NCBI GenBank assembly: GCA_001723645.1
Contig: MDLC01000015.1
Span: forward strand, 1 to 57,238
From: Candidatus Endobugula sertula
GTDB taxonomy: Bacteria > Pseudomonadota > Gammaproteobacteria > Pseudomonadales > Cellvibrionaceae
Reading direction: 5' to 3'
Length of the DNA stretch: 57,238 bases
Below, in pieces: positions 43,136 to 57,238 of the stretch. The notes under the pieces were generated by a model. It had not been told where the DNA came from and did no database searches. It was given only the letters and a program-made list of their open reading frames with translations. How positions within the stretch are numbered: the stretch's first letter is position 1; the number at the start of each line of letters is the position of its first letter. A program made the translations under genes and the position numbers.

Positions 43136-43137
43136 AT

Positions 43138-44611: not shown

Positions 44612-44725
44612 CTATATAATTAGTAACTGCAATAAATTTTAAATATGCAAAGCTAAACTAAAGCTTCAATAAAGAGCCAGAGATTAAAAATGTTTGTCTG
44701 AATGGATATAGCAGTAAGAAAAAAT

Positions 44726-44938: not shown

Positions 44939-44978
44939 TGTCTTTCATCCTGTTGAGTACTATTCCTCTAAAGTCTTT

Positions 44979-46241
44979 CTATTGAGGAGCTATCTTATAC
45001 TGTGCCATATACCGCTTAATACTACCCAAACGTAACCGACGAATTTTCTCTGCTAATTTAAGGCCTTCATAGCCTTCACTTAGTAATGGCTTGATATTGG
45101 TATCTATAGCAACCTGGTTGTATTCGATTAACAATTGAGATTGAGGGTAATCTCTTTGCTCTAATCCTAAACGACCCCTAGCATCCGCTTCACAGGCTTG
45201 CGCAAAGTAACGTACACGTTCTGGTCGCCTGAACCCATCTAGTGCTTCCAATAGCTTTAATACCGATTTGGGACGCATTTCTAATAACTTATGACAACGT
45301 AAATGATGCTCTGACACTAGTTTTGCCAAGGTGCGAAAGTCTTTCGGTACTTTATAACACTCACATACTTTCTCAACTAAAGGTACACCTTTAATTTCAT
45401 GGCGAATATGACGAGGCCACTCTTCTTCAGGGGTAAGACCTTTACCCAAATCATGCATTAGTGCAGCCCAGGTCACGATTAGATCATCAAAACGCTCTCT
45501 GGCAATGTCCACGACCATCATCACATGATCACCCGTATCCACTTCTGGGTGATGCTGTGGGGGTTGCGGAACACCAAATAAACAGTCTAATTCTGGCATT
45601 AAAACCTCCAATGCACCACAGGCACGGAGCACTCGGAAAAACTCACTGGGCCGAGGCTCGGTTAATGCTCGAGACATTTCCTTCCAAACACGTTCCGGTG
45701 TTAATTCAGCAAGCTCGCCATTGTTAACCAAGTGCTTCATTAATTCTAATGTATTGGGATGCACTTGAAAATCTAACGTGGCATAACGTGCAGCAAAACG
45801 GGCTACTCTTAATACTCTCAATGGGTCATCAGAGAATGATTCTGAAACATGTCGTAAGACTTTATTATTTAAATCGGCTCTACCGTTAAACGGATCAACA
45901 TATTTACCTTCTAATGTCAGCGCAATGGCATTAATCGTAAGGTCTCTCCGAGATAGATCTTCTTCAAGTGTAACCTCGGGGCTAAAATCACAAACAAAGC
46001 CAGTGTGCCCCTTACCTGATTTTCTTTCAGTACGAGCGAGAGCATATTCATCCTTAGTTTCTGGGTGTAAAAAACAGGGAAAGTCGTTACCTATTTGTTG
46101 ATAGCCTTGCTCTATAAGCATTTCTGGAGTCGCACCGATGACTACCCAGTCATGATCTGCAACTGGGCGACCTAATAGCTTATCGCGTACCGCTCCACCG
46201 ACTAAATAAGCCTGAACACCAGTATTCTGTATATTTTCCAT
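44979..46241 (-). CDS. cca: Multifunctional CCA-adding enzyme (tRNA nucleotidyltransferase with HD phosphohydrolase domain)
   Basis: GGAVRD nucleotidyltransferase motif. The HD domain (HDLGKG) is typical of enteric-type Cca. Confidence 0.9.
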   Translation of the reverse strand: MENIQNTGVQAYLVGGAVRDKLLGRPVADHDWVVIGATPEMLIEQGYQQIGNDFPCFLHPETKDEYALARTERKSGKGHTGFVCDFSPEVTLEEDLSRRDLTINAIALTLEGKYVDPFNGRADLNNKVLRHVSESFSDDPLRVLRVARFAARYATLDFQVHPNTLELMKHLVNNGELAELTPERVWKEMSRALTEPRPSEFFRVLRACGALEVLMPELDCLFGVPQPPQHHPEVDTGDHVMMVVDIARERFDDLIVTWAALMHDLGKGLTPEEEWPRHIRHEIKGVPLVEKVCECYKVPKDFRTLAKLVSEHHLRCHKLLEMRPKSVLKLLEALDGFRRPERVRYFAQACEADARGRLGLEQRDYPQSQLLIEYNQVAIDTNIKPLLSEGYEGLKLAEKIRRLRLGSIKRYMAQYKIAPQ

Positions 46242-46987
46242 TATATTGTTACGACTAAGTTCTCATTAAAGTTTGGGTTATAGCTATCTGGATAACCTCT
46301 TGGATTACAAATAATACGGCAGTTACCTATGGAGTAATCATAACTTTGGTGCAAATGACCGTGAATCCAAAGATTTGGACTGTACTCCAAAATAAAATCA
46401 TCTAAATCAGATACATAGGCAGCGCTCGTCATATCGCTTGCCTTTTTCTCTGAAAGAGACATTCTACTAGGGCCGTGGTGACTTATAACAACATTTTTAT
46501 ACCCTTTATAAGTGGTTAGTTCACGTTCAAGCCAATGAAGTGAATGTTTATGGATAATAGCCGTATCTATCGACCTTAATTTTGAGTACTTGGGAGAAAC
46601 TCGAATCTTCTTGTAGTCATTCATTATCTGTTGACAGTGAAAACCTGCAATCCGAGGATCGCCAAAAAGCTCAAAATCTGTCCATAATGTACAGCCAAAG
46701 AAATTAATATTACCTAAAGTAACCAACTCTTTTTCTAAAATATGAATGTTTGTGTCTTTAGCCATCGCTTTCATTTCATGAATATATTTCGGATACGCTT
46801 TACCGTAAAATTCATGGTTGCCTAGTACATATAAGACGGGTTTATCAGGTATATTTTTTAATGCCCACTCTATTCCTTTTCCTTTTACATGGATATCACC
46901 AGCAAGAATGACAATGTCACACTCCGGCAAGGTTAGTTCCAAATTAGCAAACTCTATATGTAGATCACTTAATATTAATAACTTCAC
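46241..46987 (-). CDS. Calcineurin-like metallophosphoesterase
   Basis: DLH...GDIH...GNHEF metallophosphoesterase motifs. Its stop abuts the cca start. Confidence 0.75.
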   Translation of the reverse strand: MKLLILSDLHIEFANLELTLPECDIVILAGDIHVKGKGIEWALKNIPDKPVLYVLGNHEFYGKAYPKYIHEMKAMAKDTNIHILEKELVTLGNINFFGCTLWTDFELFGDPRIAGFHCQQIMNDYKKIRVSPKYSKLRSIDTAIIHKHSLHWLERELTTYKGYKNVVISHHGPSRMSLSEKKASDMTSAAYVSDLDDFILEYSPNLWIHGHLHQSYDYSIGNCRIICNPRGYPDSYNPNFNENLVVTI

Positions 46988-47052
46988 GTTATACTTCTGA
47001 TAGTTTTTTCATATGTAAAGGGTAAAACCGCCAGCAAGCTGACGGTTATCGG

Positions 47053-48207
47053 TTAAGCCTTTTTAGGGGCTAGAGTTACAAGCTCGTTAAGCACACCGCC
47101 TAAACCACCGTAAACAGAAATCTTATCGATTTGACCGGTAATTTTTTCGAGTGCTTCTAACTCTTTCAAGCGAAGCAATACTGGATTATTTTCCATCATC
47201 TTAGCAGTATTATGTAACGAACGCATAGCTTGAGTTTCCTCGCGGCGTTTGATCAAGTTAGCTTCAGCTTCTTTTTGTGCTTCAACCACTTGATTCAAGA
47301 TTTGCTTCATATCACCCGGCAAGATAATGTCTTTAACACCAACATTGACCAGCTCAATACCATAGTTAGCTAATTTTTCGCGAGTCGCTTGGGTAATCAC
47401 TGTGTTAAGTGTATCTTTATCTTCCAACAAAGTATCCAGTGATTGTGTACCCACCGCTTCACGCAGGCTTAACTGCAGCTCGCGATAGATAAAACCAGCA
47501 TAATCATTCACTTTTAAAGCGACGATTTCTGGATCTTTCACTTTATAGCTAGCGCTTAAGTTAATACGCAGGCTCACACGATCCTTTGTTAAAATTTTTT
47601 GACCACTTACCTCAACAGCTTGTAAGCGTAGATCTAATAGCTTAACACCAACAGAACGATTGTATTTCCAGAAGCCATAATTTCCAGGCTTTAAAATACT
47701 CTCGAGCTTACCATTAACGTTTAGAAGGCCGACGTGTTCATCTGGCACTTCTGCGTAAAGAATGGCATTAACTACTTCTCGGCTTTGACCTACTGTTAGG
47801 CCTCGACCTAGTAGATTAATCAACGACTTATCGATTTGGTAGTTCTCACTGATATCAATAATATCAACACGAACATCCTCTACATTTTTCCAAACGGTTA
47901 AAACAGAACCTGGTGCGAGCACACTAGCCAGCTTGTTATCTCGATACAGCAAACCGACTTCAGAGTCTTTAAGGTTAAACTGTTCAAGATAAGGTGCTAA
48001 TTTATCTGCATATTGAGTCATTAGGAACTGTGCTTTACGGTTCTTAAATAACACGTCGGTAATGTCATGAACGTCTACTGCCACTCGGCCTTGTGGGGTC
48101 GATACTCGGTGTCGACCTGGACCTAGTACACGTTTAAATTGATCACGCACATACAATAGAGCACGTTGATGATCAGCAATATCAATTGTCTTCCAGAAAA
48201 TCATCAT
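47053..48207 (-). CDS. SPFH / band-7 domain protein
   Basis: 384 aa with an SPFH-like core followed by a coiled-coil. Confidence 0.65.
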   Translation of the reverse strand: MMIFWKTIDIADHQRALLYVRDQFKRVLGPGRHRVSTPQGRVAVDVHDITDVLFKNRKAQFLMTQYADKLAPYLEQFNLKDSEVGLLYRDNKLASVLAPGSVLTVWKNVEDVRVDIIDISENYQIDKSLINLLGRGLTVGQSREVVNAILYAEVPDEHVGLLNVNGKLESILKPGNYGFWKYNRSVGVKLLDLRLQAVEVSGQKILTKDRVSLRINLSASYKVKDPEIVALKVNDYAGFIYRELQLSLREAVGTQSLDTLLEDKDTLNTVITQATREKLANYGIELVNVGVKDIILPGDMKQILNQVVEAQKEAEANLIKRREETQAMRSLHNTAKMMENNPVLLRLKELEALEKITGQIDKISVYGGLGGVLNELVTLAPKKA

Positions 48208-48490
48208 TTTCTCCTTATAGCTGGCATCATAAAGATGCCTTTTATGAATAGGCGAGGCCCACTTGGTTTTAACGCGGTCGATAATTTGAATAGCCTAGGT
48301 CACTTATCTCAGCGGCTTGTTGCGCGGTTATCTTCACCCTGAAGAACAACATCCGTGTATGCTTTCCTTAGCGAATAACCGTGGTTCAAGCATAAAATAA
48401 TGACGTAAACGATTAACCCATCATCAACGGTATTAAAACCATTGCTAGCTAATCTATAGAAGCCTTAACCAGCAGTGAGCCTCTAGTGTT

Positions 48491-48541
48491 TTATTGGTAA
48501 CAAACCAAGGGGATTCGAACCCCAGACTTTCGTCTTACCCA
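48491..48541 (-). other. tRNA 3'-half fragment (T-arm GGGGTTCGAATCCCC plus acceptor strand, no 5' half)
   Basis: A canonical T-arm lies directly downstream of the intact tRNA-Met. No D or anticodon arm is present. Confidence 0.3.
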
Positions 48542-48618
48542 TGGTGTTTTTGGCAGGATTCGAACCTGCTACCCATCGATTATGAATCGATTGCTCTACC
48601 CGTATGAGCTACAAAAAC
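48542..48618 (-). tRNA. tRNA-Met (anticodon CAT; could be elongator Met or Ile2), AU-rich acceptor stem GUUUUUG/CAAAAAC, CCA encoded
   Basis: Hand-folded cloverleaf: D stem GCTC/GAGC, anticodon stem ATCGA/TCGAT with loop TTCATAA, T-arm GCAGG-TTCGAAT-CCTGC. Confidence 0.75.
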
Positions 48619-48984
48619 CTATGCGTTGGAGGCATAGTTGTTTAGCGGGCTAGCGAATCGGTACACAGGACATTAAAAATGGCTGTGCCAGCCTGGCATA
48701 CGGAACCAGAGACACTGTTTCGTTAACTTGCGCATAAACATCGGTATGGAGTTAGACGCCAAAAAAGCGCCAAACTCCAAATACTTATCATCGAATATCG
48801 GAAACAACACTAAGGTGTTTGCCTTTTTCCTTATCGTACTCGGCAATTTCCATTTCTCCGTCAATTGGCGCTATTGTTACCAAATGATCAATTCGTGAAT
48901 ACATCTCTCCATGGTAGGCTTTTAGCTCGCCTTTTCCATTTTCATATCCTCATTGCTTATGAACTAAAGCCAATACAGTTTGGT

Positions 48985-49536
48985 TTAGCCACTCTTCCAT
49001 TTTCGTTGACTAGAAAATTGTTTAGTCAGATAGTCCATTTGATCGGCAATAATATGCCGATTAGTTAAATACAAATATTCAAAAGGATTCGGCGTAAACG
49101 GAACCGCTAATAAAAGCATATTTGCTTGTTCCGGTGTACGATTGCCTTTTGCATGATTGCAGCGCTTGCAGGCGGCCACGACATTTGTCCAACTATCGGC
49201 TCCACCTTGAGCACGCGGTACCACATGGTCACGGGTTAGTTCCTGTGCAAAAAATATTTGGCCGCAATATAAGCACACATAATTATCTCGACGAAATAAC
49301 ATAGCATTGCTAAATGAACGGACCTTCATACTTTTTCCGTGACCTTTAGTCGCAATCACTGGAGAAATATCAAGCATAGAACGTTCGCCATCGCGGTTGT
49401 AACCGCCCCGCATTAAGGCACCTTGTTCACCCATTTCCCACAGCACAAGTTTTTTGCTGTAAAGGGTTGTAGCAGCCTCCACTAATAGCCAATGCATCGG
49501 CATACCAGAGGGATTTAGGCGTAGTACTTTTTTCAT
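48985..49536 (-). CDS. HNH endonuclease
   Basis: HNH motif (DHVVPRAQGG...NVVAACKRCNHAKGN) plus a CxxC pair. Confidence 0.75.
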   Translation of the reverse strand: MKKVLRLNPSGMPMHWLLVEAATTLYSKKLVLWEMGEQGALMRGGYNRDGERSMLDISPVIATKGHGKSMKVRSFSNAMLFRRDNYVCLYCGQIFFAQELTRDHVVPRAQGGADSWTNVVAACKRCNHAKGNRTPEQANMLLLAVPFTPNPFEYLYLTNRHIIADQMDYLTKQFSSQRKWKSG

Positions 49537-49578
49537 TACCTTGCGCCAAAAAATAAATCCATATGTGAATACACCAGC

Positions 49579-49875
49579 CTAATAGTATTTAATAAAGTTC
49601 ATACCATCAGCCGAGCGATAACCATTTGTTTCTAACAAATGGATCATCGCTTGTCGTTTTTGTAATTGCCTTTCTGTAACAACTACATAAAGCGGCATCA
49701 ATTGTTGATGGAGTGCCCATGTCAACAATTGGTGCCCATTTTCGCGACCAACTAAATAGTGATCCACATATAGCTGGGTTACACTATTTTTAAGCAATTG
49801 CTTTTTTGCTTTTCTTGCATCGTCACAGAAAACATCTGCGAAACGGTTTTGATTTTTGCTAACAGATAAACGCAT
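49579..49875 (-). CDS. Hypothetical protein (98 aa)
   Basis: ORF. Confidence 0.3.
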   Translation of the reverse strand: MRLSVSKNQNRFADVFCDDARKAKKQLLKNSVTQLYVDHYLVGRENGHQLLTWALHQQLMPLYVVVTERQLQKRQAMIHLLETNGYRSADGMNFIKYY

Positions 49876-49908
49876 AATCCCTCCTGTGAGCTAGTGAGAA
49901 TATTTAGG

Positions 49909-49980
49909 GGTGACCGATGGGACTCGAACCCATATATACTTGAGCCACATTCAAGCGCATTACCGATCTGCCACGGCCAC
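49909..49980 (-). tRNA. tRNA-His (GTG), 3' CCA not encoded
   Basis: Anticodon stem CTTGA/TCAAG with loop ATGTGGC. T-arm ATGGG-TTCGAGT-CCCAT. Ends ...GGTCACC-C-CT. Confidence 0.7.
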
Positions 49981-50011
49981 ACCTAAATATTCTGGGTAAT
50001 AAGAAATAATT

Positions 50012-50086
50012 TGGTCCGCCCGGTAGGATTTGAACCCACACCTGTCGGCTTAAAAGGCCGATGCGCTACCATTACGCCACGAACGG
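50012..50086 (-). tRNA. tRNA-Lys (TTT)
   Basis: Anticodon stem TCGGC/GCCGA, loop CTTTTAA, T-loop TTCAAAT, CCA encoded. Confidence 0.8.
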
Positions 50087-50091
50087 AAAAT

Positions 50092-50170
50092 TGGCACCTG
50101 ACACAGGACTCGAACCTGCATCTCCCCGCTTCGTAGGCGGGTGCTCTAAATCCAATTGAGCTAATCAGGC
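50092..50170 (-). tRNA. tRNA-Arg (ACG)
   Basis: Anticodon stem CCCGC/GCGGG, loop CTACGAA, T-loop TTCGAGT, CCA encoded. Acceptor stem has two G-U pairs. Confidence 0.7.
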
Positions 50171-50176
50171 AAAATT

Positions 50177-50250
50177 TGGAGCCCAATACAGGACTCGAAC
50201 CTGTCTCTACTGCTTACAAGGCAGTTGCACAGCCGCTATGCCAATCGGGC
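50177..50250 (-). tRNA. tRNA-Thr (TGT)
   Basis: Anticodon stem ACTGC/GCAGT, loop CTTGTAA, T-arm ACAGG-TTCGAGT-CCTGT, CCA encoded. Confidence 0.8.
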
Positions 50251-50290
50251 AAGTTAAGAAATTTTGTGAAATAAAAGACTGGAATCCTTT

Positions 50291-51487
50291 CTAGCCTTTT
50301 ACGTTGACGATTTGACGAAGCGTATGAACAACGTCAACAAGATCAGTTTGGTTATCCATAACATCATCAATTGGCTTATACGCCATGGGAATCTCATCGA
50401 TTACACCTTTGTCTTTACGGCATTCAATCCCCTCTGTTGCAGATACAAGATCACTTACAGAATAGGTTTTTGCAGCCGCAGTTCGACTTAGGCGACGTCC
50501 AGCGCCGTGAGAGCAAGAACAGAACGATTCTGATTCACCTTTACCACGAACAATAAAACTTTTATCGCCCATAGACCCAGGAATAATACCCAAATCATCT
50601 TTTCTTGCGCGGATAGCGCCTTTACGTGTAACCCATACGTTTTTACCAAAATGGTTTTCCTTTTCCACATAGTTATGATGACAATTGATGGCTTCTTGAG
50701 TGACCGCAAACGCTGGAAGATGTTTACGTAGCTCCATCATCACTGCATTCATCATATGTGTACGATTCAATGCAGCATAATCTTGCCCCCAAGATACTGC
50801 TTCGATGTAATCATCGTAATATTCTGATCCTTCAGATAGATAAGCCAAATCTTTATCGGGCAAATGGATCATCCATTTTTCCATTTCACGTTTCGCGATC
50901 TCGATAAAATGCATTCCAATTTTATTACCGATACCACGGCTTCCTGAATGCAGCATAATCCATACGTCTTGATTTTCATCCAAACACAACTCGATAAAGT
51001 GATTCCCTGAACCTAGCGTACCTAACTGCTTTGCAAAGGCATCATACTTAATACGTTTACTTATTTGAGGATGCTTCTCGAAGATAGTACTTAAACGCAT
51101 TGAAATATCATGGCCACCTGCAATTTTAGGGTCACGATGTTTTCCGCCTGCCCCCAAAGGCACAACAGATTCAATACGACTGCGAATAGCTTTCAAATTA
51201 TCAGGCAGATCTTTTGCCTTTAGCGATAGACGCACGGCATTCATACCACAACCAATATCCACGCCTACTGCAGCAGGGATAATCGCTTTATCGGTCGCGA
51301 TTACTGAACCCACAGTCGCTCCTTTACCCAAATGAACATCTGGCATTGCTGCTACATGTTTATAGACAAAGGGTAAATTCGCTACTCGGCTTAATTGTGC
51401 CTGTGTGTTGTAATCAATATCATCTGTCCAGATTTTTACAGGCACACGCTGATCTTTATGCGTTGCCAATACTTTTTTAATGGTCAT
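50291..51487 (-). CDS. rtcB: RtcB-family RNA ligase (second copy), embedded in the tRNA array
   Basis: 398 aa with RtcB motifs (HLGKGATVGS, HSGSRGIGN, HGAGRR). Flanked 5' by 13 tRNA genes and 3' by 4 tRNA genes on the same strand. Confidence 0.9.
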   Translation of the reverse strand: MTIKKVLATHKDQRVPVKIWTDDIDYNTQAQLSRVANLPFVYKHVAAMPDVHLGKGATVGSVIATDKAIIPAAVGVDIGCGMNAVRLSLKAKDLPDNLKAIRSRIESVVPLGAGGKHRDPKIAGGHDISMRLSTIFEKHPQISKRIKYDAFAKQLGTLGSGNHFIELCLDENQDVWIMLHSGSRGIGNKIGMHFIEIAKREMEKWMIHLPDKDLAYLSEGSEYYDDYIEAVSWGQDYAALNRTHMMNAVMMELRKHLPAFAVTQEAINCHHNYVEKENHFGKNVWVTRKGAIRARKDDLGIIPGSMGDKSFIVRGKGESESFCSCSHGAGRRLSRTAAAKTYSVSDLVSATEGIECRKDKGVIDEIPMAYKPIDDVMDNQTDLVDVVHTLRQIVNVKG

Positions 51488-51517
51488 AATTGCCTCCTTT
51501 AGTTATTTTATAATGAC

Positions 51518-51658
51518 TGGTTGGAGGTATAGGAATAACCTAAGCGCGTCCTGCGCTTAGCCTTTCAGATGCAAAGCAGTTCAAAATGCTCCCGGCATTT
51601 TGTCGAACCCATCTCGCCGGGGCAAAAACCCGGTGCTCAGCCACTAAGCCAACCTCCA
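51518..51658 (-). tRNA. tRNA-like gene (anticodon loop TTTTTGC, anticodon UUU?) with a 74-nt T-loop in place of the usual 7 nt
   Basis: Perfect acceptor TGGAGGT/ACCTCCA, D-arm and anticodon arm CCGGG/CCCGG intact. T-stem ATGGG/CCTAT encloses TTCGACAAAATGCCGGGAGCATTTTGA...GGTTATT (+ strand 51534-51607). CCA encoded. Confidence 0.55.
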
Positions 51659-51668
51659 GTTAAGTAAT

Positions 51669-51818
51669 TGGAGCGATGTATGGGAATCGAACCCATTTCC
51701 TCTGCTTGGACTGCTTTGCAGGAGCAAAAGCAGGACATCATGTAGTGGTGGTTGCGAAGCAATTGTGTATAGGGATATACACAACAACGCAGGTACCTCA
51801 CCATTCGGTTAACATCGC
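51669..51818 (-). tRNA. tRNA gene with an 83-nt anticodon loop between stem halves CCTGC/GCAGA; identity unresolved (Gly-TCC, Ala or Thr possible; discriminator U)
   Basis: Acceptor GCGATGT/ACATCGC perfect. T-arm ATGGG-TTCGATT-CCCAT. Insert at + 51706-51788 contains an 8-bp hairpin TGTGTATA/TATACACA and the motif TTTTGCTCCTGCAAA. Confidence 0.5.
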
Positions 51819-51824
51819 ATAAAT

Positions 51825-51902
51825 TGGTCTGGGTGGTAGGGTTTGAACCTACGACCTTTGGGTTCCAAACCCAACACGCTAACCAAACTGCGCTACACCC
51901 AG
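51825..51902 (-). tRNA. tRNA-Pro (TGG)
   Basis: Acceptor CTGGGTG/CACCCAG. Anticodon stem TTGGG/CCCAA, loop TTTGGAA. T-arm GTAGG-TTCAAAC-CCTAC. CCA encoded. Confidence 0.8.
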
Positions 51903-51910
51903 AATAAATT

Positions 51911-52052
51911 TGGCGGTTCATACCACTTCCCATAAATAGAGAGGGAACCGGTGATCTCTCGGCTTATTCACATGAATGTAATGTATGCCGATTTTGCAGG
52001 AGCAAAAATCGGTGACAACCGAGCGCATTAAACCTGACTATGCTAATGAACC
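51911..52052 (-). tRNA. tRNA-Asp (GTC) with a 49-nt insertion immediately 3' of the anticodon loop and an expanded 24-nt T-loop
   Basis: Acceptor GGTTCAT/ATGAACC perfect. D stem GCAT/ATGC. Anticodon stem CTCGG...CCGAG encloses loop TTGTCAC followed by insert CGATTTTTGCTCCTGCAAAATCG... (+ 51963-52011). T-stem ATCAC/GTGGT. Discriminator G as expected for Asp. Confidence 0.55.
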
Positions 52053-52057
52053 TTAAT

Positions 52058-52133
52058 TGGTGGAGACCGTGGGAATCGAACCCACCACACAGTGCTTGCA
52101 AAGCATCGTCGCCCCCTTGATACATGGGCCCCC
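52058..52133 (-). tRNA. tRNA-Ala (TGC) with G3-U70 pair; irregular D-arm
   Basis: Anticodon loop TTTGCAA. T-arm GTGGG-TTCGATT-CCCAC. Acceptor GGGGGCC/GGTCTCC gives G3·U70. CCA encoded. Confidence 0.6.
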
Positions 52134-52138
52134 AATTT

Positions 52139-52293
52139 TGGAGTGCGAGGCTGGGTGAAAGAAGTGTTGTTAGCAAAGCACTGCTTTGTACTTCTTGAAC
52201 GCCCAAAACTTATAATTTTTGGCCGGCCCGCTTGCGGCAAACCAGCGTATACGGAGGTTGCAGCTCCGCGCATCGTCTCTCTGCCACTCGCAC
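52139..52293 (-). tRNA. tRNA-Cys (GCA) with an 87-nt T-loop
   Basis: Acceptor GTGCGAG/CTCGCAC perfect. Anticodon stem CGGAG/CTCCG, loop CTGCAAC. T-stem GCTGG/CCAGC perfect, enclosing + strand 52155-52241. Discriminator U as expected for Cys. CCA encoded. Confidence 0.55.
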
Positions 52294-52310
52294 AAAATAG
52301 TTATTCAGAT

Positions 52311-52384
52311 TGGCAACAGCGTCAGGATTCGAACCTGGAATACCGGAGTCAAAGTCCAGTGTGTTACCGTTACACCACGCTGCT
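52311..52384 (-). tRNA. tRNA-Gln (TTG)
   Basis: Anticodon stem CTGGA/TCCGG, loop CTTTGAC. D stem GTGT/ACAC. T-loop TTCGAAT. Discriminator G. CCA encoded. Confidence 0.75.
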
Positions 52385-52392
52385 ATATTTTT

Positions 52393-52481
52393 TGGTCGTG
52401 AGGAGCGGGTTTGAACTCTCGCAGCACTCTTGTTACTGTGCGGATTAGCAATCCGCTGCCTTACCACTCGGCCACATTTCC
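52393..52481 (-). tRNA. tRNA-Ser (GCT)-like type II gene, probably degenerate (acceptor halves and T-stem poorly paired)
   Basis: 5' half matches Ser (TG-GCC-GAGTGGTAA-GGC, anticodon stem GCGGA/TCCGC, loop TTGCTAA). 3' acceptor CCTCACG does not pair with 5' GGAAATG. T-stem GAGAG/CCGCT is mispaired. Confidence 0.4.
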
Positions 52482-52487
52482 AATAAT

Positions 52488-52629
52488 TGGTTGCGGTGGC
52501 TGGAATAACCAAAGTACTTTCTGTACTTTGCTCTGCGAGTGCTTCGCTGCTCAAAATGCTCCAGGCATTTTGTCGAACCAACAAGTTCGGGCATATGAAA
52601 CCCGCGAGTAGCCATAGCTCAACACCGCT
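52488..52629 (-). tRNA. tRNA (anticodon CAT) with a 74-nt T-loop, same architecture as 51518-51658
   Basis: Acceptor (A)GCGGTG/CACCGCA. Anticodon stem CGGGT/GCCCG, loop TTCATAT. T-stem GTTGG/CCAGC encloses TTCGACAAAATGCCTGGAGCATTTTGA...GGTTATT (+ 52504-52577). D-arm weak. CCA encoded. Confidence 0.5.
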
Positions 52630-52640
52630 TCAAATAGTAG

Positions 52641-52715
52641 TAGGCCAAGGCGGATTCGAACCGCTCCTTATCCCGCTTATGAGGCGGGTGCATTCACCGA
52701 TTATGCTATTGGCCT
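52641..52715 (-). tRNA. tRNA-Met/Ile2 (CAT), CCA not encoded
   Basis: Acceptor AGGCCAA/TTGGCCT perfect. D stem GCAT/ATGC. Anticodon stem CCCGC/GCGGG, loop CTCATAA. T-loop TTCGAAT. Confidence 0.75.
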
Positions 52716-52725
52716 AATTTAAAAT

Positions 52726-52809
52726 TGGTGTAGGCAGATGGAGTTGAACCACCAAAGCTTTCGCGACCGGGTTACAACCGGCTAGAGTCACCACGTCTCT
52801 TCTGTGTAC
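52726..52809 (-). tRNA. tRNA-Tyr (GTA), type II; acceptor stem has two internal mismatches
   Basis: Anticodon stem GCCGG/CCGGT, loop TTGTAAC. Long variable arm. T-arm GGTGG-TTCAACT-CCATC. Acceptor GTACACA vs TGCCTAC. Confidence 0.55.
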
Positions 52810-52818
52810 CTGCATAAT

Positions 52819-52895
52819 TGGCTCCGGCAGTTGGGATCGAACCAACGAACTCCTGATTAACAGTCAGGCGCATTACCACTCTGCTTCACACCGGA
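52819..52895 (-). tRNA. tRNA-Asn (GTT)
   Basis: Anticodon stem CCTGA/TCAGG, loop CTGTTAA. T-arm GTTGG-TTCGATC-CCAAC. Acceptor with two G-U pairs. CCA encoded. Confidence 0.75.
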
Positions 52896-52902
52896 ATAAA
52901 AT

Positions 52903-52979
52903 TGGTACAGTGAGCTGGACTCGAACCAGCACTCTCCTGATCTTCAATCAAGCGCTCTACCAATTGGAGCTATCACTGC
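52903..52979 (-). tRNA. tRNA-Phe (GAA)
   Basis: D-arm GCTC-CAATTGGTA-GAGC. Anticodon stem CTTGA/TCAGG, loop TTGAAGA. T-arm GCTGG-TTCGAGT-CCAGC. CCA encoded. Confidence 0.8.
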
Positions 52980-52984
52980 CGTTT

Positions 52985-53015
52985 TATTTGGCACGCGGTG
53001 AAAGAAAAGTATCAA
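52985..53015 (-). promoter_or_regulatory. Candidate sigma70 promoter for the tRNA array (TTGATA-N19-CAAATA, about 5 nt upstream of tRNA-Phe +1)
   Basis: Minus strand reads TTGATACTTTTCTTTCACCGCGTGCCAAATAAAACG then the tRNA-Phe 5' end. Confidence 0.35.
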
Positions 53016-53173
53016 ACCTCATCGAGGAGTGGAACGACAGCAATAAAATTGATCCTGAACGGCTAGAAGACCAGCTCACACCAGAGCGTTATAGGGCGCT
53101 ATTTGATACCCTCGTAGATTGGAATGACTATCTTGACAACCATGCACCGGATATCAAGGAGTTGTTGCTATGA
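52988..53173 (+). CDS. Small hypothetical protein upstream of mobC (possible TTG start just past tRNA-Phe)
   Basis: The listed ORF 52910-53173 overlaps tRNA-Phe. The only plausible start downstream of the tRNA is the TTG at 52988. Confidence 0.25.
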   Translation: MARGERKVSNLIEEWNDSNKIDPERLEDQLTPERYRALFDTLVDWNDYLDNHAPDIKELLL

Positions 53174-53598
53174 ACAATTCTGCGAACCTCAAACAAGCGT
53201 TTGAAACCTCTAGCGCTCAAAATACCATCAAACCTAAAAAGCAGTATGCACGAACATTTTCTATGCGTCTTACGGATGGTGAACGTGATTTCTTAGACCA
53301 GCATAGCGGCTCTTTGTCATGGTCTGGCTATATCCGCAAGCGTGTCTTTGGTGAAAAAGCCGAAAAACGTCGCCCTGTAAAACGAGCTGTGCCAGATACG
53401 GCGCTACTAGCTCAAGTTCTCGCAGAGCTAGGCGCTTCCCGTTTATCTGCCAATATCAACCAACTGGCAAAACACGCCAATATGGGAACGCTGGACGTTT
53501 CGCCTGAAACTGAGCGCGAGATTGAAAGCGCCTGCCGTGAAATCCATACCCTGCGTATGCTGTTGATTGCTGCCTTGGGTGTTCAGCCAGAGGATTAG
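53170..53598 (+). CDS. mobC: MobC-like relaxosome accessory protein
   Basis: 142 aa immediately upstream of, and overlapping, the relaxase gene. Resembles the MobC family. Confidence 0.55.
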   Translation: MNNSANLKQAFETSSAQNTIKPKKQYARTFSMRLTDGERDFLDQHSGSLSWSGYIRKRVFGEKAEKRRPVKRAVPDTALLAQVLAELGASRLSANINQLAKHANMGTLDVSPETEREIESACREIHTLRMLLIAALGVQPED

Positions 53599-53600
53599 AG

Positions 53601-54734
53601 ATGATATTGCACGGCAATCAACGCGGCGGCGCTAAAGATATGGCGCTTCATCTTATGAAAGATGAAAACGAACATATTGAGGTGTACGAGATCAGAGGCT
53701 TTGCTTCTGAAAACCTCATAGGGGCTTTTAACGAAGCCTATGCCATTAGCCGCGCCACACGTTGTAAGCAATTCCTATACTCTCTAAGCTTAAACCCGCC
53801 ACCGGATGAGCAGGTATCTACTGAAAGCTTTAAAAAAGCCATTAATCAGGCTGAACAACGGCTAGGGCTGGATAATCAGCCCCGCGTTATTGTTTTCCAT
53901 GAAAAGCAGGGGCGTAGGCATTGCCATGTTGTCTGGTCACGAATTGATAGCTCTGAATTAAAGGCCATACGGCTTCCTTTTACCAAGTTGAAATTACGGG
54001 AGTTATCCCGCGAATTATTCCTAGAGCATGGCTGGGCTATGCCCGAAGGTTTGCGGGATTCCCACAACCGTGACCCGCGTAATTTTACCTTGGCAGAATG
54101 GCAGCAAGCCAAACGCACAGGCAAGAACCCCAAGCAGGTTAAGGCCGTATTCCAAGAATGCTGGAATATTAGCGATACACAAAGCGCTTTTGCCAATGCC
54201 CTAAAAGAGCATGGTTATATCTTGGCGCGTGGTGATCGGCGCGGCTTTGTTGCGGTGGATTTTAAAGGTGAAGCTTTCGCCGTGTCTAAATGGGTTGGCA
54301 TTAAAGCAAAAGACGTTAAAGCCAAACTCAACGAAGCGGATAAGTTGCTTCCATTTGCAGACGCTAAAGCACACATGGCAAATGCTATGGCGGCAACATT
54401 GCAAAAGGCTCAAGAGCAGCAAAATACCGCTATTCGTGAGCGCCAAAATCAGCTTGAGGCAAGACTTGAAGCCATGGCCATGCAACATAAGCAAGAACGC
54501 CAAAATCTGGAACAAACACAAGATATACGCCGTATTGAAGAAACCAAAACCCGCCAAGCCAGATACAGCAAAGGCTTACGAGGCCTATGGCAACGCCTGG
54601 ATAAGTTCAGGGAACAGGGGCAAAAGCATATCACTCAAGACATACAACAATACCGCGAAATCCAACAACATAAGCGGGATACGTTCAGCATGACAGACCC
54701 ACAAAAACATAGGGGTAGAGGGCTTGAGCGTTAA
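53601..54734 (+). CDS. mobA: Mobilization relaxase (MobA/VirD2-type relaxase/mobilisation nuclease domain)
   Basis: N-terminal relaxase domain (ILHGNQRGGAKDMALHLMKDENEHIEVYE...; H.H.VV motif III). C-terminal coiled-coil. Confidence 0.8.
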   Translation: MILHGNQRGGAKDMALHLMKDENEHIEVYEIRGFASENLIGAFNEAYAISRATRCKQFLYSLSLNPPPDEQVSTESFKKAINQAEQRLGLDNQPRVIVFHEKQGRRHCHVVWSRIDSSELKAIRLPFTKLKLRELSRELFLEHGWAMPEGLRDSHNRDPRNFTLAEWQQAKRTGKNPKQVKAVFQECWNISDTQSAFANALKEHGYILARGDRRGFVAVDFKGEAFAVSKWVGIKAKDVKAKLNEADKLLPFADAKAHMANAMAATLQKAQEQQNTAIRERQNQLEARLEAMAMQHKQERQNLEQTQDIRRIEETKTRQARYSKGLRGLWQRLDKFREQGQKHITQDIQQYREIQQHKRDTFSMTDPQKHRGRGLER

Positions 54735-54822
54735 TTAATTGGTTAAATTTGACTCAAACAGCAAAAAAGTTGTATGCTTAAACATATATGTGTTTATACG
54801 CTTATTTATAGAGGTAACTATC

Positions 54823-55059
54823 ATGACACGTTGGAGTCTTGTTGTTAATAACGAAACCGATCAAAGCTTACGTGCTTTTCTGGGTCAGAAAGGTGCGAAA
54901 AAAGGTGATTTATCCAAATTCGTAGAAGAAGCCGTACTGGATAAATTACTGGCTGAAACAGCAGAAATGATTAAAGAGCGTAATGCTGCCGATGATCAAA
55001 TGAATATTATGAGTACAGTAAATGAAGCATTAGAGGCTGTACGTGCGCATAGTTCTTGA
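54823..55059 (+). CDS. Ribbon-helix-helix antitoxin (start taken at internal ATG 54823 with GAGGT SD; six-frame ORF begins 54739)
   Basis: Small protein whose stop overlaps the PIN toxin start. MTRWSLVVNNETDQSLRAFL is RHH-like. Confidence 0.5.
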   Translation: MTRWSLVVNNETDQSLRAFLGQKGAKKGDLSKFVEEAVLDKLLAETAEMIKERNAADDQMNIMSTVNEALEAVRAHSS

Positions 55060-55459
55060 TACAGGCATTTTAGTTAGCGCATTAATCACCAAAGATACGC
55101 CGCCTGATTGGTTGTACCAATCATGGTGTAAACAAGCCTTTACGCTTGTCACCTCTGAAGAGCAACTGGAAGAAATAAAGCGTGTACTGTCTTATAAAAA
55201 GCTCGAACGTTTTATCAATCAGTCCGAAGCACAAATTCTGCTAGAAGCTCTCCACCGAAAAGCAGATATTGCAACAGACCTACCTTTTGTTGAACTATCA
55301 CCTGACCCTGATGATAACCGTATTATTGCCACGGCGCTGGCTGGGCAAGCGGATTATCTGGTATCAGGCGATAAGGCGGATTTATTGAGCCTTGGCATGG
55401 CTCATGATATTCCCATTCTTACTGCTCGGCAGATGGCAGAACGCTTGAAACTGGGTTAA
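55043..55459 (+). CDS. PIN-domain toxin (VapC-like)
   Basis: MRIVLDTGILVSALI N-terminus with conserved acidic residues. Confidence 0.7.
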   Translation: MRIVLDTGILVSALITKDTPPDWLYQSWCKQAFTLVTSEEQLEEIKRVLSYKKLERFINQSEAQILLEALHRKADIATDLPFVELSPDPDDNRIIATALAGQADYLVSGDKADLLSLGMAHDIPILTARQMAERLKLG

Positions 55460-55475
55460 ATAACAAAGCCATTTA

Positions 55476-56027
55476 TCAATTGAAAAAGTCTCGAATGTCC
55501 ATAATTGCACCTTTCCCGTTAAGGTGCTGGCGCATTTGATTTAGCTTTTCATAAATTGTGACAGTATATATTCCGTTAAAGCTGCCATATATCTTATGGT
55601 CTTCCCCCGTTTCACAATATTTAGGGTTATCCAATGTGTGAAAAGTTCTACAGTGAAATGGCCTTACCTCATATATCGTACATTCGCCTTCATCACCAAG
55701 AAAAGGACAAGGGCTAGTATGTCCGGTAGAAGCAATTAATTGTCTGGGCTTTCTCTTTCGACGGGTCTCTTCCTCTATAAGTTTTGCTTCTAATTCAGTG
55801 ATCGTGACATCAATTTTGCAGCAGTGAGAACATCCTTTCGAGCAAACAGAGAAGGTTTTAACAAAGTCACCATAATCTTCTAAATATTTGTAAATATCTT
55901 TTAGCTTCAAAATAGCTCTTTTATTTTTAGATTGAAGTGTGCTCAGTAACTTCTTGCACTTAATAGCTAATTCATTAGGGATAGCAGGTAATACCGTTTC
56001 TTCACTTTTATCTTTAAACTTTATCAT
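55476..56027 (-). CDS. YkgJ/UPF0153-family Cys-rich (CxxCxxCC) putative zinc/iron-binding protein
   Basis: CSKGCSHCCKID motif plus additional Cys pairs. Confidence 0.55.
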   Translation of the reverse strand: MIKFKDKSEETVLPAIPNELAIKCKKLLSTLQSKNKRAILKLKDIYKYLEDYGDFVKTFSVCSKGCSHCCKIDVTITELEAKLIEEETRRKRKPRQLIASTGHTSPCPFLGDEGECTIYEVRPFHCRTFHTLDNPKYCETGEDHKIYGSFNGIYTVTIYEKLNQMRQHLNGKGAIMDIRDFFN

Positions 56028-56147
56028 TATACGACCTCTGATAACCTCTACGATTAAATCATGATGATATTGATGCCAAAAAAGTGGCTAGTTACACCTT
56101 AGCTGAGAGTAACAAAATAAGTGAACAAAGACGACGATAAGAGGAAC

Positions 56148-56372
56148 CTAAAATGAGGTATTAGGTACTTTTTTAATATAATCACGAACGGCGATGAGTA
56201 TAGGGCTTAGATCTTCGTCTTTGCTATGAATCATCTTCAAAACCGTATCCTCGCTATCGGCTAGATCACAAAGCATAGAGCCATACATTTTCATGTAGCT
56301 GCGGTATTTGCGTTTAAGCTGTGCTGGTGTTGTCATTGCTGGAAGTCCTTTTTTTCTGAGGGGTATATTCAT
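56148..56372 (-). CDS. Hypothetical protein (74 aa)
   Basis: ORF overlapping the recombinase 3' end. Confidence 0.25.
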   Translation of the reverse strand: MNIPLRKKGLPAMTTPAQLKRKYRSYMKMYGSMLCDLADSEDTVLKMIHSKDEDLSPILIAVRDYIKKVPNTSF

Positions 56373-56937
56373 TTAAGATGCGGCTGAGAGTGCGGGTAGA
56401 GATGCCAAATTCTTTGGCTATCTCTTTATGAGTGTATTGCTGTTGGGCTTTCATTTTGAGGAGTGCGCGGGTTTTACGCTGTGATAGTTTACGCCGCCGC
56501 CCAAGGTGTTTGCCGTTTTGTCGGGCGATTTCCAACCCTGCTTTGGTTCGCTCTGAAATAATATCGCGCTCAAGCTCTGCAAAGGCATTGCGGATGGTAT
56601 ACATGCACTTACCCATCGGGGTTGTTGTGTCGATAGCTTCCGTCAAACATTTAAACTCAAGGCCGCGTTGCTGAAATAAATCTAATACGTCTAGTGCGTT
56701 TCTAACCGAACGGAAGGCACGGTCAAATTTCCAAATCACCAGCACATCACCATACTGCATAGACGCAATAGCGCTGTCGAAGCCTGGGCGTGATTTAGCG
56801 ATAGCGGACACGCCCAAGTCTTCGAAGATATTATTCTGCTCACACCCTGCTAATATCAGGGCTTTGCGTTGTAGGTCTAAATTCTGTTCACTGGTGCTAA
56901 CCCGCGCATAACCAATCAAGGCCATAAATCCTCCCAT
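56314..56937 (-). CDS. Serine recombinase (resolvase/invertase family)
   Basis: N-terminal catalytic motif IGYARVSTSEQ and a C-terminal HTH. Confidence 0.85.
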   Translation of the reverse strand: MGGFMALIGYARVSTSEQNLDLQRKALILAGCEQNNIFEDLGVSAIAKSRPGFDSAIASMQYGDVLVIWKFDRAFRSVRNALDVLDLFQQRGLEFKCLTEAIDTTTPMGKCMYTIRNAFAELERDIISERTKAGLEIARQNGKHLGRRRKLSQRKTRALLKMKAQQQYTHKEIAKEFGISTRTLSRILNEYTPQKKRTSSNDNTSTA

Positions 56938-57238
56938 AAAATAATGTCTTCCCTATAACGGTAGACAAAACCGAACGTTTCTGTCTTATAGCCATAAGAT
57001 CACCCAGTCAATAAAAAAGAGAGAAAAAGGCGTTAAAAACGGGCGTAAACAGCCATTTTTTAAGCACAAAATAATCTTATGGAATTATGACGAAATCCTT
57101 CGATTGCGGCGGCTATTAATCTATTGATATTGCTTACTTTTTCTTGTTCTGTATGGGCAGATGCATATTCCACTCCAAGATGAACACCTTCTCCAATTGA
57201 AAATGATCACCCCCTGCGATTAAACGTGATCAGTCTCT

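Follow-up and report, generated by a model that had tools for sequence, protein, structure and literature searches.

Interrupted tRNA genes beside rtcB

Next to an rtcB gene on a contig of Candidatus Endobugula sertula lie five tRNA genes whose T or anticodon loops are interrupted by inserts of 49–82 nt (Table 1), and the question raised by this locus is what these inserts are and how they came to sit in tRNA loops. The window analyzed here is the whole stretch of 57,238 nt from that contig. When the inserts were removed in silico, ARAGORN returned canonical tRNA-Lys(UUU), tRNA-Met(CAU), and tRNA-Gly(UCC) of 74–75 nt; tRNA-Asp and tRNA-Cys gave no ARAGORN call even with the insert (49 nt for tRNA-Asp) taken out. 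The tRNA-Met gene has an A1·A72 mismatch together with a GGG/CCC anticodon stem.

Table 1. Interrupted tRNA genes of the window, their inserts, and the adjacent ligase gene.
Feature	Position	Strand	Basis or remark
tRNA-Lys(UUU), T loop interrupted	51518..51658	-	CCA encoded; cloverleaf canonical once the insert is removed
tRNA-Lys insert, type-1 module, sense, four hairpins, 67 nt	51536..51602	-	between A58 and U59; orthologue alignment
tRNA-Gly(UCC), anticodon loop interrupted	51669..51818	-	intact orthologues in L248 and L249; canonical without insert
tRNA-Gly insert, type-1 module, reverse orientation, 76 nt	51711..51786	+	nhmmer with the module profile, E = 6.6e-9, + strand
tRNA-Asp(GUC)	51911..52052	-	49-nt insert 3' of position 38; T loop ~16 nt larger; sequence reading
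tRNA-Asp insert, short relative, 49 nt	51963..52011	-	one hp1-type hairpin and one other hairpin
tRNA-Cys(GCA), T loop interrupted	52139..52293	-	intact orthologue L249:5574-5648
tRNA-Cys insert, second type, ~82 nt, CCGCAAGCGG...	52156..52237	-	boundaries +/- ~2 nt
tRNA-Met(CAU), T loop interrupted	52488..52629	-	intact orthologues in L248 and L249; canonical without insert
tRNA-Met insert, type-1 module, sense, 67 nt	52506..52572	-	between A58 and U59; orthologue alignment
rtcB, RNA 3'-phosphate/5'-OH ligase	50291..51487	-	Pfam PF01139, E = 1.7e-129

An earlier examination of the letters without database searches (the sequence-only reading) had described two T-loop inserts with a common start in this array, and this was borne out. 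The Lys and Met inserts share a 27-nt start, TTCGACAAAATGCC[G/T]GGAGCATTTTGA, found at just two places in the window (51581-51607 and 52551-52577, both on the minus strand) with none expected from 100 shuffles, and both end with GGTTA followed by TTCC. Alignment with intact orthologues sharpened their boundaries: the 74 nt originally claimed took in TTCGA and TT, and the inserts proper measure 67 nt. The motif said to be shared by the Gly- and Asp-gene inserts, TTTTGCTCCTGCAAA, was likewise found exactly twice (51715-51729 and 51993-52007, minus strand). The window contains five hairpins that combine a GC-NGGA-GC apex with 7 bp or more of stem, and every one of them lies between 51540 and 52572 (0.1 in shuffles). 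The tRNA strand has three of them and the opposite strand two, in agreement with the claim that the hairpin core occurs on both.

The DNA of the Lys, Met, and Gly inserts folds far better than shuffled sequence (z of -4.6, -6.0, and -5.3, respectively), and the effect is weaker for the Asp (-2.2) and Cys (-2.5) inserts. A profile of marine RtT-like sequences, described below, detected the Lys insert with E = 1.8e-6 and the Met insert with E = 2.2e-8 in nhmmer. The Gly insert folds into hp1 (CTGCTTTGC-AGGA-GCAAAAGCAG), TTGC-GAA-GCAA, and TTGTGTATA-GGGA-TATACACAA, and is the reverse complement of the same module, as the sequence-only reading had anticipated in proposing insertion in either orientation. 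The Lys, Met, and Gly inserts are one family of four-hairpin modules, of which the Gly copy is reversed. These modules are non-coding, ~65–100 nt in size, and begin with a conserved hairpin, followed by one or two short ones whose loops are of the C(GNA)G type and by a last hairpin that is variable yet perfectly paired; their loop and linker sequences show low conservation. The Asp insert, previously counted as a member, shares only the first hairpin with the type-1 module and not the rest; its hp1-type apex GC-AGGA-GC reads on the + strand (51988-52012). No Rfam ribozyme or intron family matched the module. Identity with a tmRNA, a Y-RNA-like RNA, or a known ribozyme was also considered and rejected, as the Rfam matches were tRNA fragments only, with nothing else meaningful.

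Occupied and empty sites in sister islands

Uninterrupted orthologues, the comparison suggested by the sequence-only reading, were found for tRNA-Lys, -Met, -Gly, and -Cys in islands whose RtcB is 91–92% identical to that of the window, and they define the insertion points precisely. The Lys, Gly, and Met genes are whole in both L248 and L249, and tRNA-Cys is whole in L249; uninterrupted tRNA-Lys orthologues are located just upstream of rtcB in L248, L249, and L252. Other genes are occupied elsewhere: tRNA-His carries the module in L252 and is whole in the window and L248, and tRNA-Pro is whole in the window and interrupted in L248, L249, and L252. No orthologue was found with which tRNA-Asp could be compared.

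The empty site is a normal 7-nt loop with precise junctions, and the sites TTCGA|TC, TTCGA|TT, and CT|TCC show no target-site duplication. Read in module orientation, the left flank of the island copies is of the T-N-N-G-A type (TTCGA, TTTGA, TACGA, TTGGA, or TTCAA). The tRNA-Gly insert lies 3' of TTGGA, the complement of the anticodon-loop bases UCCAA, and the islands hold anticodon-loop copies besides those in T loops. About ten island copies are in sense orientation for each one in antisense.

The same module subtype sits in different tRNA hosts. The Lys module of the window and the tRNA-His module of L252 are 84% identical, with a compensatory change from GCGC to GTAC in the last hairpin, and a homologue of the Cys-type insert occupies the same T-loop position in a different (Glu-like) tRNA of L249 (~4400-4540). 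L249 also has two-hairpin units resembling the Asp insert, and comparison with L248 shows that one of these sits inside the loop of a further GC-AGG|AGC hairpin. Identity in the exons of interrupted tRNAs is 86–93%, against 68–96% for uninterrupted neighbors, and thus no lower, so that the host genes may still be under constraint.

The family, its precise insertion points, its presence or absence between sister islands, its two orientations, the occurrence of one subtype in different tRNA hosts, and the DNA-like palindromic stems are direct observations, and the earlier proposal of related small elements with constant and variable parts inserted in either direction stands in this form. A classical MITE, however, the module is not: the two ends are separate hairpins and not mutual inverted repeats, so terminal inverted repeats are lacking, and there is no target-site duplication.

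Copies in marine Gammaproteobacteria

Further copies, whose search the sequence-only reading had recommended, are present not only in the sister islands but also at at least 127 loci of marine Gammaproteobacteria, seven in GTDB genomes and at least 120 in metagenomes. The marine module always lies 3' of GTTCGA within a duplicate of the 19 nt that end the adjacent tRNA gene, 63–83 nt downstream of the intact gene, and at least eight tRNA identities are represented. In nearly all marine loci with an upstream tRNA the 3' copy begins at position -19, and in 19 of them all 19 nt are identical. The marine copies are without exception in sense, sharing the direction of the tRNA gene and keeping a fixed distance from it. 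Beside essential chromosomal tRNA genes, the module was found only inside this non-essential tRNA 3'-end copy, and these chromosomal loci have no linked rtcB. The possibility that the marine GTTCGA...AATCC is a true T arm was rejected, as GUUC has its pairing partner in an upstream GAAC, and the tRNA-like 3' end is paired to the 5' arm.

Marine copies were also considered as the ends of integrase-bearing genomic islands. This was rejected, since the 74 downstream ORFs were diverse housekeeping genes, with no integrase or transposase among the 25 most frequent Pfam families listed; six further ORFs were ordinary. Viral contigs had no match to module patterns of 21–27 nt, and BLAST against phages and plasmids returned either rtcB only or no match. 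Therefore, the element is not phage- or plasmid-borne in the collections searched. The 15-mer TTTTGCTCCTGCAAA proved uninformative as a probe of IMG/VR, with 120 chance matches.

The large number of copies allowed the pairing of the hairpins to be assessed. Among 137 distinct copies, the hp1 pair tested was C-G in 86 and T-A in 51, with no other combination, the search pattern having permitted all four; hp3 showed CG/GC/UA swaps. Compensatory changes thus preserve the hairpins, which are consequently not chance AT-rich structures, a doubt that the sequence-only reading had itself raised. Altogether, the module hairpins contained 1176 Watson-Crick, 5 G·T, and 7 A·C pairs; for tRNA stems at these loci, the corresponding numbers were 1143 Watson-Crick, 68 G·U, and 7 A·C. 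The module stems are DNA-like palindromes with no G·U excess and no strand asymmetry, and differ in this from the tRNA stems.

Relation to RtT repeats and AaHKsRNA22

The four-hairpin module extends beyond this genome and forms the core of RtT-type repeats, which Rfam already lists. Such repeats came to light when the E. coli tyrT locus was first sequenced and, to our knowledge, have never been explained. The E. coli tyrT/RtT repeats are 178 bp long, and each includes the 3'-terminal 19 nt of tRNA-Tyr. RtT carries the annotation of an sRNA, RttR, and is reported to be processed from the tyrT transcript and to act in an unexplained mode, and both E. coli RtT and Aggregatibacter AaHKsRNA22 are catalogued as expressed RNAs. 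In the literature, we found no description of hairpin insertions in tRNA loops, nor of RtT-like elements beyond tyrT.

RtT (RF00391) of the E. coli K-12 tyrT-tyrV operon and the marine loci share one unit architecture. The 5' arm, GGAUGAGAA(G/C)C, is a near inverted copy of the T arm and is followed by GGUUCGA, by three or four perfect hairpins including C(GCA)G and CCC-GAA-GGG, and by the end GA(G)U-AAUCC, after which come the last 19 nt of the neighboring tRNA. Units of ~170–180 bp are repeated in tandem, and the 5' arm of marine locus L122 has GGATGAGAAGCTTCG in common with E. coli. The internal hairpin block of RtT occupies exactly the position of the T-loop inserts of the window, although the E. 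coli units lack the CAAAAYGC hairpin. The window copies differ in that they sit in complete tRNA genes, in either orientation and in anticodon loops too. They have no duplicated tRNA fragment, a role filled by the tRNA's own 3' end, and no GGAUGAGAAC-like 5' arm, which in the marine loci and E. coli is complementary to the T arm and 3' end; in the window, a normal tRNA body and T stem precede TTCGA.

The RF00391 model is one of tRNA-Tyr in enterobacteria, and the E. coli RtT units score 133–138 bits on it (gathering threshold 45 bits). Neither the window array region nor loci L121–L127 gave a match to this model at E <= 1, and eight further marine loci and the insert region gave none at E <= 10. 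An HMM of the four E. coli RtT units found marine copies only at E = 0.01–0.9, and the reverse test, a marine sequence profile against E. coli RtT, was not significant either (E about 1–4). The link between E. coli RtT and the marine loci rests on architecture and shared short blocks, not on significant sequence profiles. The consensus of AaHKsRNA22 (RF02902) shows the same four-hairpin block, with ACAAAACGC-loop-GCGUUUUG, a second hairpin, CCCC-AAA-GGGG, a 9-bp hairpin, and GA; it is described solely as an sRNA, with no tRNA-insertion context. Marine copies reach 30.1–36.7 bits over the full model (1-101) and the Lys insert of the window 14.7 bits (E = 7.5), both below the gathering threshold of 39.8 bits.

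Mobile elements, RNA domains, or introns

On balance, we hold with moderate confidence that the modules are non-autonomous mobile DNA hairpin elements inserting 3' of T-N-N-G-A. Insertion would take place directly 3' of this target, which is TTCGA in the T loop or, in an anticodon loop, a similar sequence on one or the other strand. The modules would be moved in trans by a putative non-adjacent enzyme that reads hairpins in single-stranded DNA, in an IS200/IS605- or REP-like manner. They may accumulate in the accessory tRNA array because genes are dispensable there, and the RtT-type repeat would be the arrangement of the module within a non-essential tRNA 3'-end copy. We infer active transposition, a single-stranded-DNA mechanism, and inactivation of the host tRNAs.

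Elements derived from IS200/IS605 and REP/BIME are single-stranded-DNA hairpin elements moved by Y1 HUH transposases. The palindrome-associated elements of these families share with the modules their small, non-coding nature, a hairpin at each end, insertion 3' of a fixed 4–5-nt target, precise empty sites with no duplication, a strong orientation bias, and arrays of alternating direct and inverted units. Subterminal hairpins, a fixed short 5' target, and the lack of duplication, all typical of IS200/IS605, were found here. In contrast to IS200/IS605, the left hairpin of the module abuts the target, with no room for a guide segment, and the left and right hairpins have unlike sequences. We know of no precedent in these families for a tRNA-loop target. 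The 20 window ORFs scanned with Pfam (23–57 kb) include an HNH nuclease, a relaxase, and a resolvase and no HUH/DDE transposase; a Y1 HUH transposase/RAYT domain was seen neither in these ORFs nor among the 25 commonest Pfam families listed for flanking ORFs.

Some observations speak against mobility. Neither a transposase nor a partner element came to light in the ORFs scanned. The first hairpin begins 1 nt past the target, unlike the known left-end spacing of IS200/IS605, and the strong sense bias is also compatible with an RNA-level role. Simple insertion leaves the RtT-type scaffold unaccounted for, with its inverted and direct tRNA 3'-end copies at a fixed distance and often in tandem. 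The limited divergence of the exons and the cataloguing of E. coli RtT and AaHKsRNA22 as expressed RNAs likewise count against mobility.

Instead of a mobile element, the module could be a functional RNA domain that is kept in the transcript, as in RtT-like sRNAs, and has spread by recombination at the universal GGTTCGAATCC and not by transposition. Placed after A58, it would spare the five-nt T-loop fold and decorate a tRNA or tRNA-3'-half scaffold, for example as a tRNA mimic or decoy in stress or toxin responses. The T loop is structurally tolerant of additional nucleotides at 58|59, which suits this explanation, as do the architecture identical to that of the E. coli repeats annotated as RttR, the 30–37 bits of marine copies on an Aggregatibacter sRNA family, the constant orientation and distance of these copies relative to the tRNA gene, and an architecture kept with covariation. 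We nevertheless consider it unlikely. Loops and linkers are weakly conserved, and the stems have neither the wobble pairs nor the strand asymmetry of tRNA stems at these loci. In addition, one copy is reversed, anticodon-loop copies would abolish decoding, most marine copies lie 3' of an intrinsic-terminator-like hairpin, and very close islands differ in the presence of the module, with different tRNAs struck in each. It is hardly conceivable that the shared motifs arose as AT-rich hairpins by chance, or that loops expanded independently of one another in decaying tRNA pseudogenes. The array is indeed accessory and several of its tRNAs are aberrant, ARAGORN failing on Asp and Cys with the inserts removed as well. 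This is outweighed by the 27-mer seen twice with zero expected, the detection of both inserts by a profile from unrelated marine loci (E = 2e-8 and 2e-6), the at least 127 more loci with the same module at the same T-loop position, and the compensatory changes.

The neighboring ligase suggests another explanation, in which the inserts are protein-spliced tRNA introns. An endonuclease of the island or the host would cut at both junctions and produce 2',3'-cyclic phosphate and 5'-OH ends, the adjacent RtcB would ligate the exons in the way known from tRNA splicing in archaea and eukaryotes, and the modules would have spread as mobile introns. A candidate ligase is at hand, as rtcB begins 31 nt downstream of the interrupted tRNA-Lys. 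The island also encodes a second RtcB with PrfH, a cyclic-phosphate-processing receiver domain protein, an HNH nuclease, a CCA-adding enzyme, and a phosphoesterase, and the RNA-repair gene set is conserved in the sister islands. Archaeal tRNA introns are known in the anticodon loop and at T-loop position 58/59. The inserts resemble archaeal and eukaryal tRNA introns in being short, in occupying these two sites, in leaving exact exons that join into canonical tRNAs, and in the adjacent RtcB gene; most copies are in sense and exon decay is not visible. They differ in the bacterial host, the one reversed copy, and the occurrence of the module also in tRNA fragments. Further points make splicing quite improbable in our view. 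By inspection, the Lys and Met junctions have no bulge-helix-bulge (two 3-nt bulges and a 4-bp helix): five unpaired loop nucleotides (TTCGA) lie between T stem and 5' junction, and the intron folds its first 21 nucleotides into a separate hairpin, so that they cannot pair with the 3' exon. No splicing-endonuclease or EndA-like domain was detected with Pfam in the 20 window ORFs (23–57 kb), G·U pairs are missing from the stems, and the RNA of the reversed Gly copy has other loops and flanks. Moreover, the module is abundant at chromosomal tRNA genes with no linked rtcB, in a 19-nt fragment unable to be a substrate. Bacterial group I introns are likewise mobile and interrupt bacterial tRNA genes in the anticodon loop, but they exceed 200 nt, compared with 49–82 nt here, and do not use T-loop sites; Rfam Intron_gpI had no match at E <= 1 in the window array region or at E <= 10 in the insert region.

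The findings link the E. coli tyrT/RtT repeats, an orphan Aggregatibacter sRNA family of Rfam, and the interrupted tRNA genes of mobile RNA-repair islands. The core common to all three is a discrete module that is gained or lost at one phosphodiester bond of the T loop. A bolder proposal, which we put forward tentatively, is that a single undescribed class of mobile hairpins gave rise to both the RtT repeats and the interrupted tRNA genes. It would home to TTCGA or its anticodon-loop look-alikes by a new single-stranded-DNA or RNA mechanism, and RtcB islands would tolerate the insertions or splice them. Were the inserts spliced by the neighboring RtcB, bacteria would have protein-dependent tRNA splicing, and these would be their first protein-spliced tRNA introns. 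Should the module be mobile, a new type of miniature element would have tRNA loops as its specific target. Many "missing" tRNAs of accessory arrays would then be interrupted genes skipped by standard tRNA finders, and all five interrupted genes of the window were indeed missed by ARAGORN.

Repeated Motifs and Genomic Setting

The sequence-only reading had described short motifs shared among tRNA inserts, and these repeats are real. The window contains exactly two copies of the 27-mer TTCGACAAAATGCC[G/T]GGAGCATTTTGA, which never arose in 100 shuffles, and exactly two of the 15-mer TTTTGCTCCTGCAAA. All five hairpins with a GC-NGGA-GC apex in the window (three on the tRNA strand, two on the opposite strand) lie within 51540-52572, compared to 0.1 in shuffles. 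Folded as ssDNA, the tRNA-Lys and tRNA-Met inserts (z-scores of -4.6 and -6.0) form the first hairpin, one short hairpin, and a final 8-bp hairpin, and the tRNA-Gly insert (-5.3, opposite strand) forms two short hairpins and a final 9-bp hairpin.

The interrupted genes belong to a minus-strand tRNA gene array at 48.5-53.0 kb, which sits within a mobile RNA-repair island (41500-57000) of the bacterial chromosome. PolA and a phosphate-transporter permease are located farther upstream. ARAGORN and Rfam called 12-13 tRNAs and skipped five gaps of 141-155 nt, every one of which consists of a tRNA gene and an insert. A tRNA-Ser(GCU)-like gene with an irregular T arm (52395-52484) is missed by ARAGORN and scores 30.5 bits in Rfam, the threshold being 29. 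In the sister island L249, a reverse-transcriptase gene (RVT_1, 10635-12416) lies at the island edge, directly beyond the SPFH gene.

Features of the island and copies of the inserts in related loci
Feature	Site	Position	Basis or sequence parts
RtcB		50291-51487	Pfam scan
Cyclic-phosphate-processing receiver-domain protein (cREC_REC)		49579-49875	Pfam scan
HNH nuclease		48985-49536	Pfam scan
SPFH protein		island	Pfam scan
Metallophosphoesterase		island	Pfam scan
CCA-adding enzyme		44979-46241	Pfam scan
Second RtcB paralogue, paired with a PrfH-like release factor		42452-44373	Pfam scan
MobC and relaxase	opposite side of array	53170-54734	Pfam scan
RHH-PIN toxin-antitoxin pair and resolvase	same side as MobC/relaxase		Pfam scan
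Sense module copy	T loop of tRNA-Phe	L248, L249, L252	
Sense module copy	anticodon loop, after CCTACGA	L248, L249, L252	
Sense module copies	T loops	L250 (a further sister island) and one more tRNA of L252	
Sense module copy	T loop of tRNA-His	L252	
tRNA-Pro inserts (another insert kind)	anticodon loop	L248 5700-5800, L249 5690-5790, L252 5740-5870	CAAAATAC-loop-GTATTTTG, CCC-TTCG-GGG, and more

Insertion Points Relative to the Sister Islands

RtcB homologues with 91-92% identity are encoded in the syntenic islands L248, L249, and L252, each with its own tRNA array. In L248 and L249, tRNA-Gly(UCC) and tRNA-Lys(UUU) immediately upstream of rtcB show no interruption. Alignment A2 places 67 inserted nt between TTCGA (A58) and T59 of the window tRNA-Lys and 76 nt in the tRNA-Gly anticodon loop. 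tRNA-Met(CAU) carries the same 67-nt T-loop insertion when compared with L248 and L249, and tRNA-Cys(GCA), compared with L249, carries one of ~82 nt and of a different type. When the inserts were deleted in silico, ARAGORN recognized tRNA-Lys, -Met, and -Gly as canonical tRNAs of 74-75 nt. The exons of the interrupted tRNAs are 86-93% identical to their orthologues, the range for uninterrupted tRNAs of the same arrays being 68-96%. Occupancy varies between the islands: tRNA-His is intact in the window and L248 and interrupted in its T loop in L252, where tRNA-Lys is intact, and tRNA-Pro (51825-51902) is intact in the window and interrupted in all three sister islands.

The anticodon arm of the interrupted tRNA-Lys (51618-51634) has a UUUUUGC loop (G37, C38) on a CCGGG/CCCGG stem, compared to the canonical CUUUUAA loop and CCGGA/UCCGG stem of the uninterrupted orthologues. 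These four loop changes and the compensated stem change, which keep the UUU anticodon, could be due to relaxed constraint or to escape from an anticodon nuclease. The A1·A72 mismatch and the GGG/CCC run in the anticodon stem of the interrupted tRNA-Met(CAU) (52488-52629) are initiator-like features; two further CAU tRNAs are present in the array (48542-48618 and 52640-52715). The T arm of tRNA-Asp (51911-51962) has a weak stem and an extra ~16 nt (CCCTCTCTATTTATGGG) within the loop, and ARAGORN does not recognize this tRNA even without its 49-nt anticodon-side insert.

A Shared Module, Sense and Reversed

Reverse-complemented, the tRNA-Gly insert follows the part order of the T-loop inserts: CTGCTTTGC-AGGA-GCAAAAGCAG, a short hairpin, TTGC-GAA-GCAA, and TTGTGTATA-GGGA-TATACACAA. 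Because the Gly insert is a reversed copy of this four-hairpin (type-1) module, the second motif noted earlier is the first hairpin of the module on the other strand. Sense copies occur in other tRNAs and islands as well. The earlier interpretation of a family of related small elements in either orientation is correct. The L252 tRNA-His copy and the window tRNA-Lys copy share 84% identity, and their last hairpins differ by compensatory changes (GCGC to GTAC). Directly 5' of every copy, in module orientation, stands a T-N-N-G-A pentanucleotide (TTCGA, TTTGA, TTCAA, TACGA, or TTGGA), and no target duplication was seen at any insertion site. A two-hairpin relative in L249 is nested in the loop of a GC-AGG|AGC hairpin that is uninterrupted in L248. 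The window tRNA-Asp insert is of this shorter, two-hairpin kind, and the tRNA-Cys insert represents a second type, found again in L249 at the matching T-loop position in a Glu-like tRNA. Non-coding leaders upstream of the sister arrays (L248 4120-4330, L249 4050-4200) contain repeated AAAATGC-AGGA-GCAATTTT hairpin units that lie in no tRNA, and a nested insertion splits one such unit in L249.

Related Units in Other Genomes

The pattern TTCGACAAAATGC-N5-GCATTTTGA was found at seven loci in GTDB genomes (Cellvibrionaceae, Sediminihaliea, Dasania, and Aliiglaciecola) and, slightly relaxed, at 120 or more metagenome loci; no match was found in IMG/VR. At the marine gammaproteobacterial loci an intact tRNA gene (Arg, Ser, Lys, Glu, Phe, Gln, Pro, or Val) stands 63-83 nt upstream of the module on the same strand, and a direct copy of its 3' end, exactly from position -19 (the latter half of the T loop) onward, comes after the module. 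Before the module come a terminator-like hairpin and an arm (consensus GGATGAGAAC) that nearly matches the T arm and 3' end in inverted form. Tandem units are frequent (L122, L126, L157, L198, L244, and L245). Downstream are unrelated housekeeping genes, and the 25 most frequent Pfam families listed for them include no integrase family. A profile built from the sequences of 102 marine units matches the tRNA-Met and tRNA-Lys inserts of the window with E-values of 2e-8 and 2e-6.

The four RtT units (Rfam RF00391) of the E. coli K-12 tyrT-tyrV-rttR locus have the same architecture: GGGGAAGGATGAGAAGC, TTCGACCAA, GGTTCGAC, hairpins including C(GCA)G and CCC-GAA-GGG, and GAGTAATCC joined to the final 19 nt of tRNA-Tyr. 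The marine and window copies tested lie beyond the reach of the Rfam RtT model. The Aggregatibacter sRNA AaHKsRNA22 (RF02902) aligns over its full length to marine copies with 30-37 bits (threshold 39.8) and to the window tRNA-Lys insert with 14.7 bits. The family of elements is real and large, and only part of it has been catalogued, under the names RtT and AaHKsRNA22. RtT-like units at L146 (3700-3885, minus strand) and L177 (~300-400) have the usual arms and GTTCGA/ATC junctions around another internal block (TCCGAGG...) with no CAAAAYGC hairpin. The module is therefore less constant than the scaffold that holds it, and the motif-based counts given here are too low for the family as a whole. 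According to a recent preprint, how rtT RNA acts is still unknown. We found no published account of the module lying in either orientation within complete tRNA genes, with its presence varying from one sister island to another.

Mobile DNA or RNA-Level Function

The hairpins are kept by compensatory change. The one first-hairpin pair that the search pattern left free varies only between C-G (86 distinct copies) and T-A (51), and CG, GC, and UA pairs are swapped in the CCCC-GNA-GGGG hairpin. The module stems comprise 1176 Watson-Crick, five G·T, and seven A·C pairs, compared to 1143 Watson-Crick, 68 G·U, and seven A·C pairs in the acceptor and T stems of 107 tRNAs of the same loci. As the module stems are nearly pure Watson-Crick, whereas a constraint on RNA only should allow G·U on the transcribed strand, they appear to be constrained on both strands, like DNA palindromes.

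The best fit, which we regard as probable by a little, is a non-autonomous mobile DNA element recognized as hairpins. It is favored by the palindrome-like stems, the reverse-oriented and nested copies, and the sequence-defined target on either strand, and also by the lack of target duplication and the differing occupancy of orthologous sites in islands ~92% identical. No enzyme mobilizing the modules was found, and simple insertion does not account for the chromosomal units, where the module always comes with a copy of the terminator and with both an inverted and a direct copy of the tRNA 3' end. The strong bias toward the sense orientation, exons that are intact, and the RtcB-centred repair genes flanking the array are also compatible with an RNA-level role, either as a retained RtT-like RNA domain, which we consider rather unlikely, or as inserts spliced out of the tRNAs, which seems improbable. 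For splicing, a bulge-helix-bulge cannot be drawn at the insert junctions and the scanned ORFs showed no splicing-endonuclease domain, though both would still be compatible with a nuclease of unknown kind.

Other Features of the Marine Loci

In L198 (117-186), L146 (~4020-4075, minus strand), and L157 (6200-6290), a single long palindrome spans the tRNA 3' end, the terminator, and the next arm. Its centre is the terminator loop and its arms reach 30-48 nt; in L198 it is perfect. Sub-threshold matches to Rfam sX4 (RF02223; up to 54 bits, threshold 70) at L121 4683-4833, L189 389-627, and L205 2894-3026 span tRNA-Ser genes and their terminators, which suggests that the sX4 family is largely a tRNA-Ser locus.
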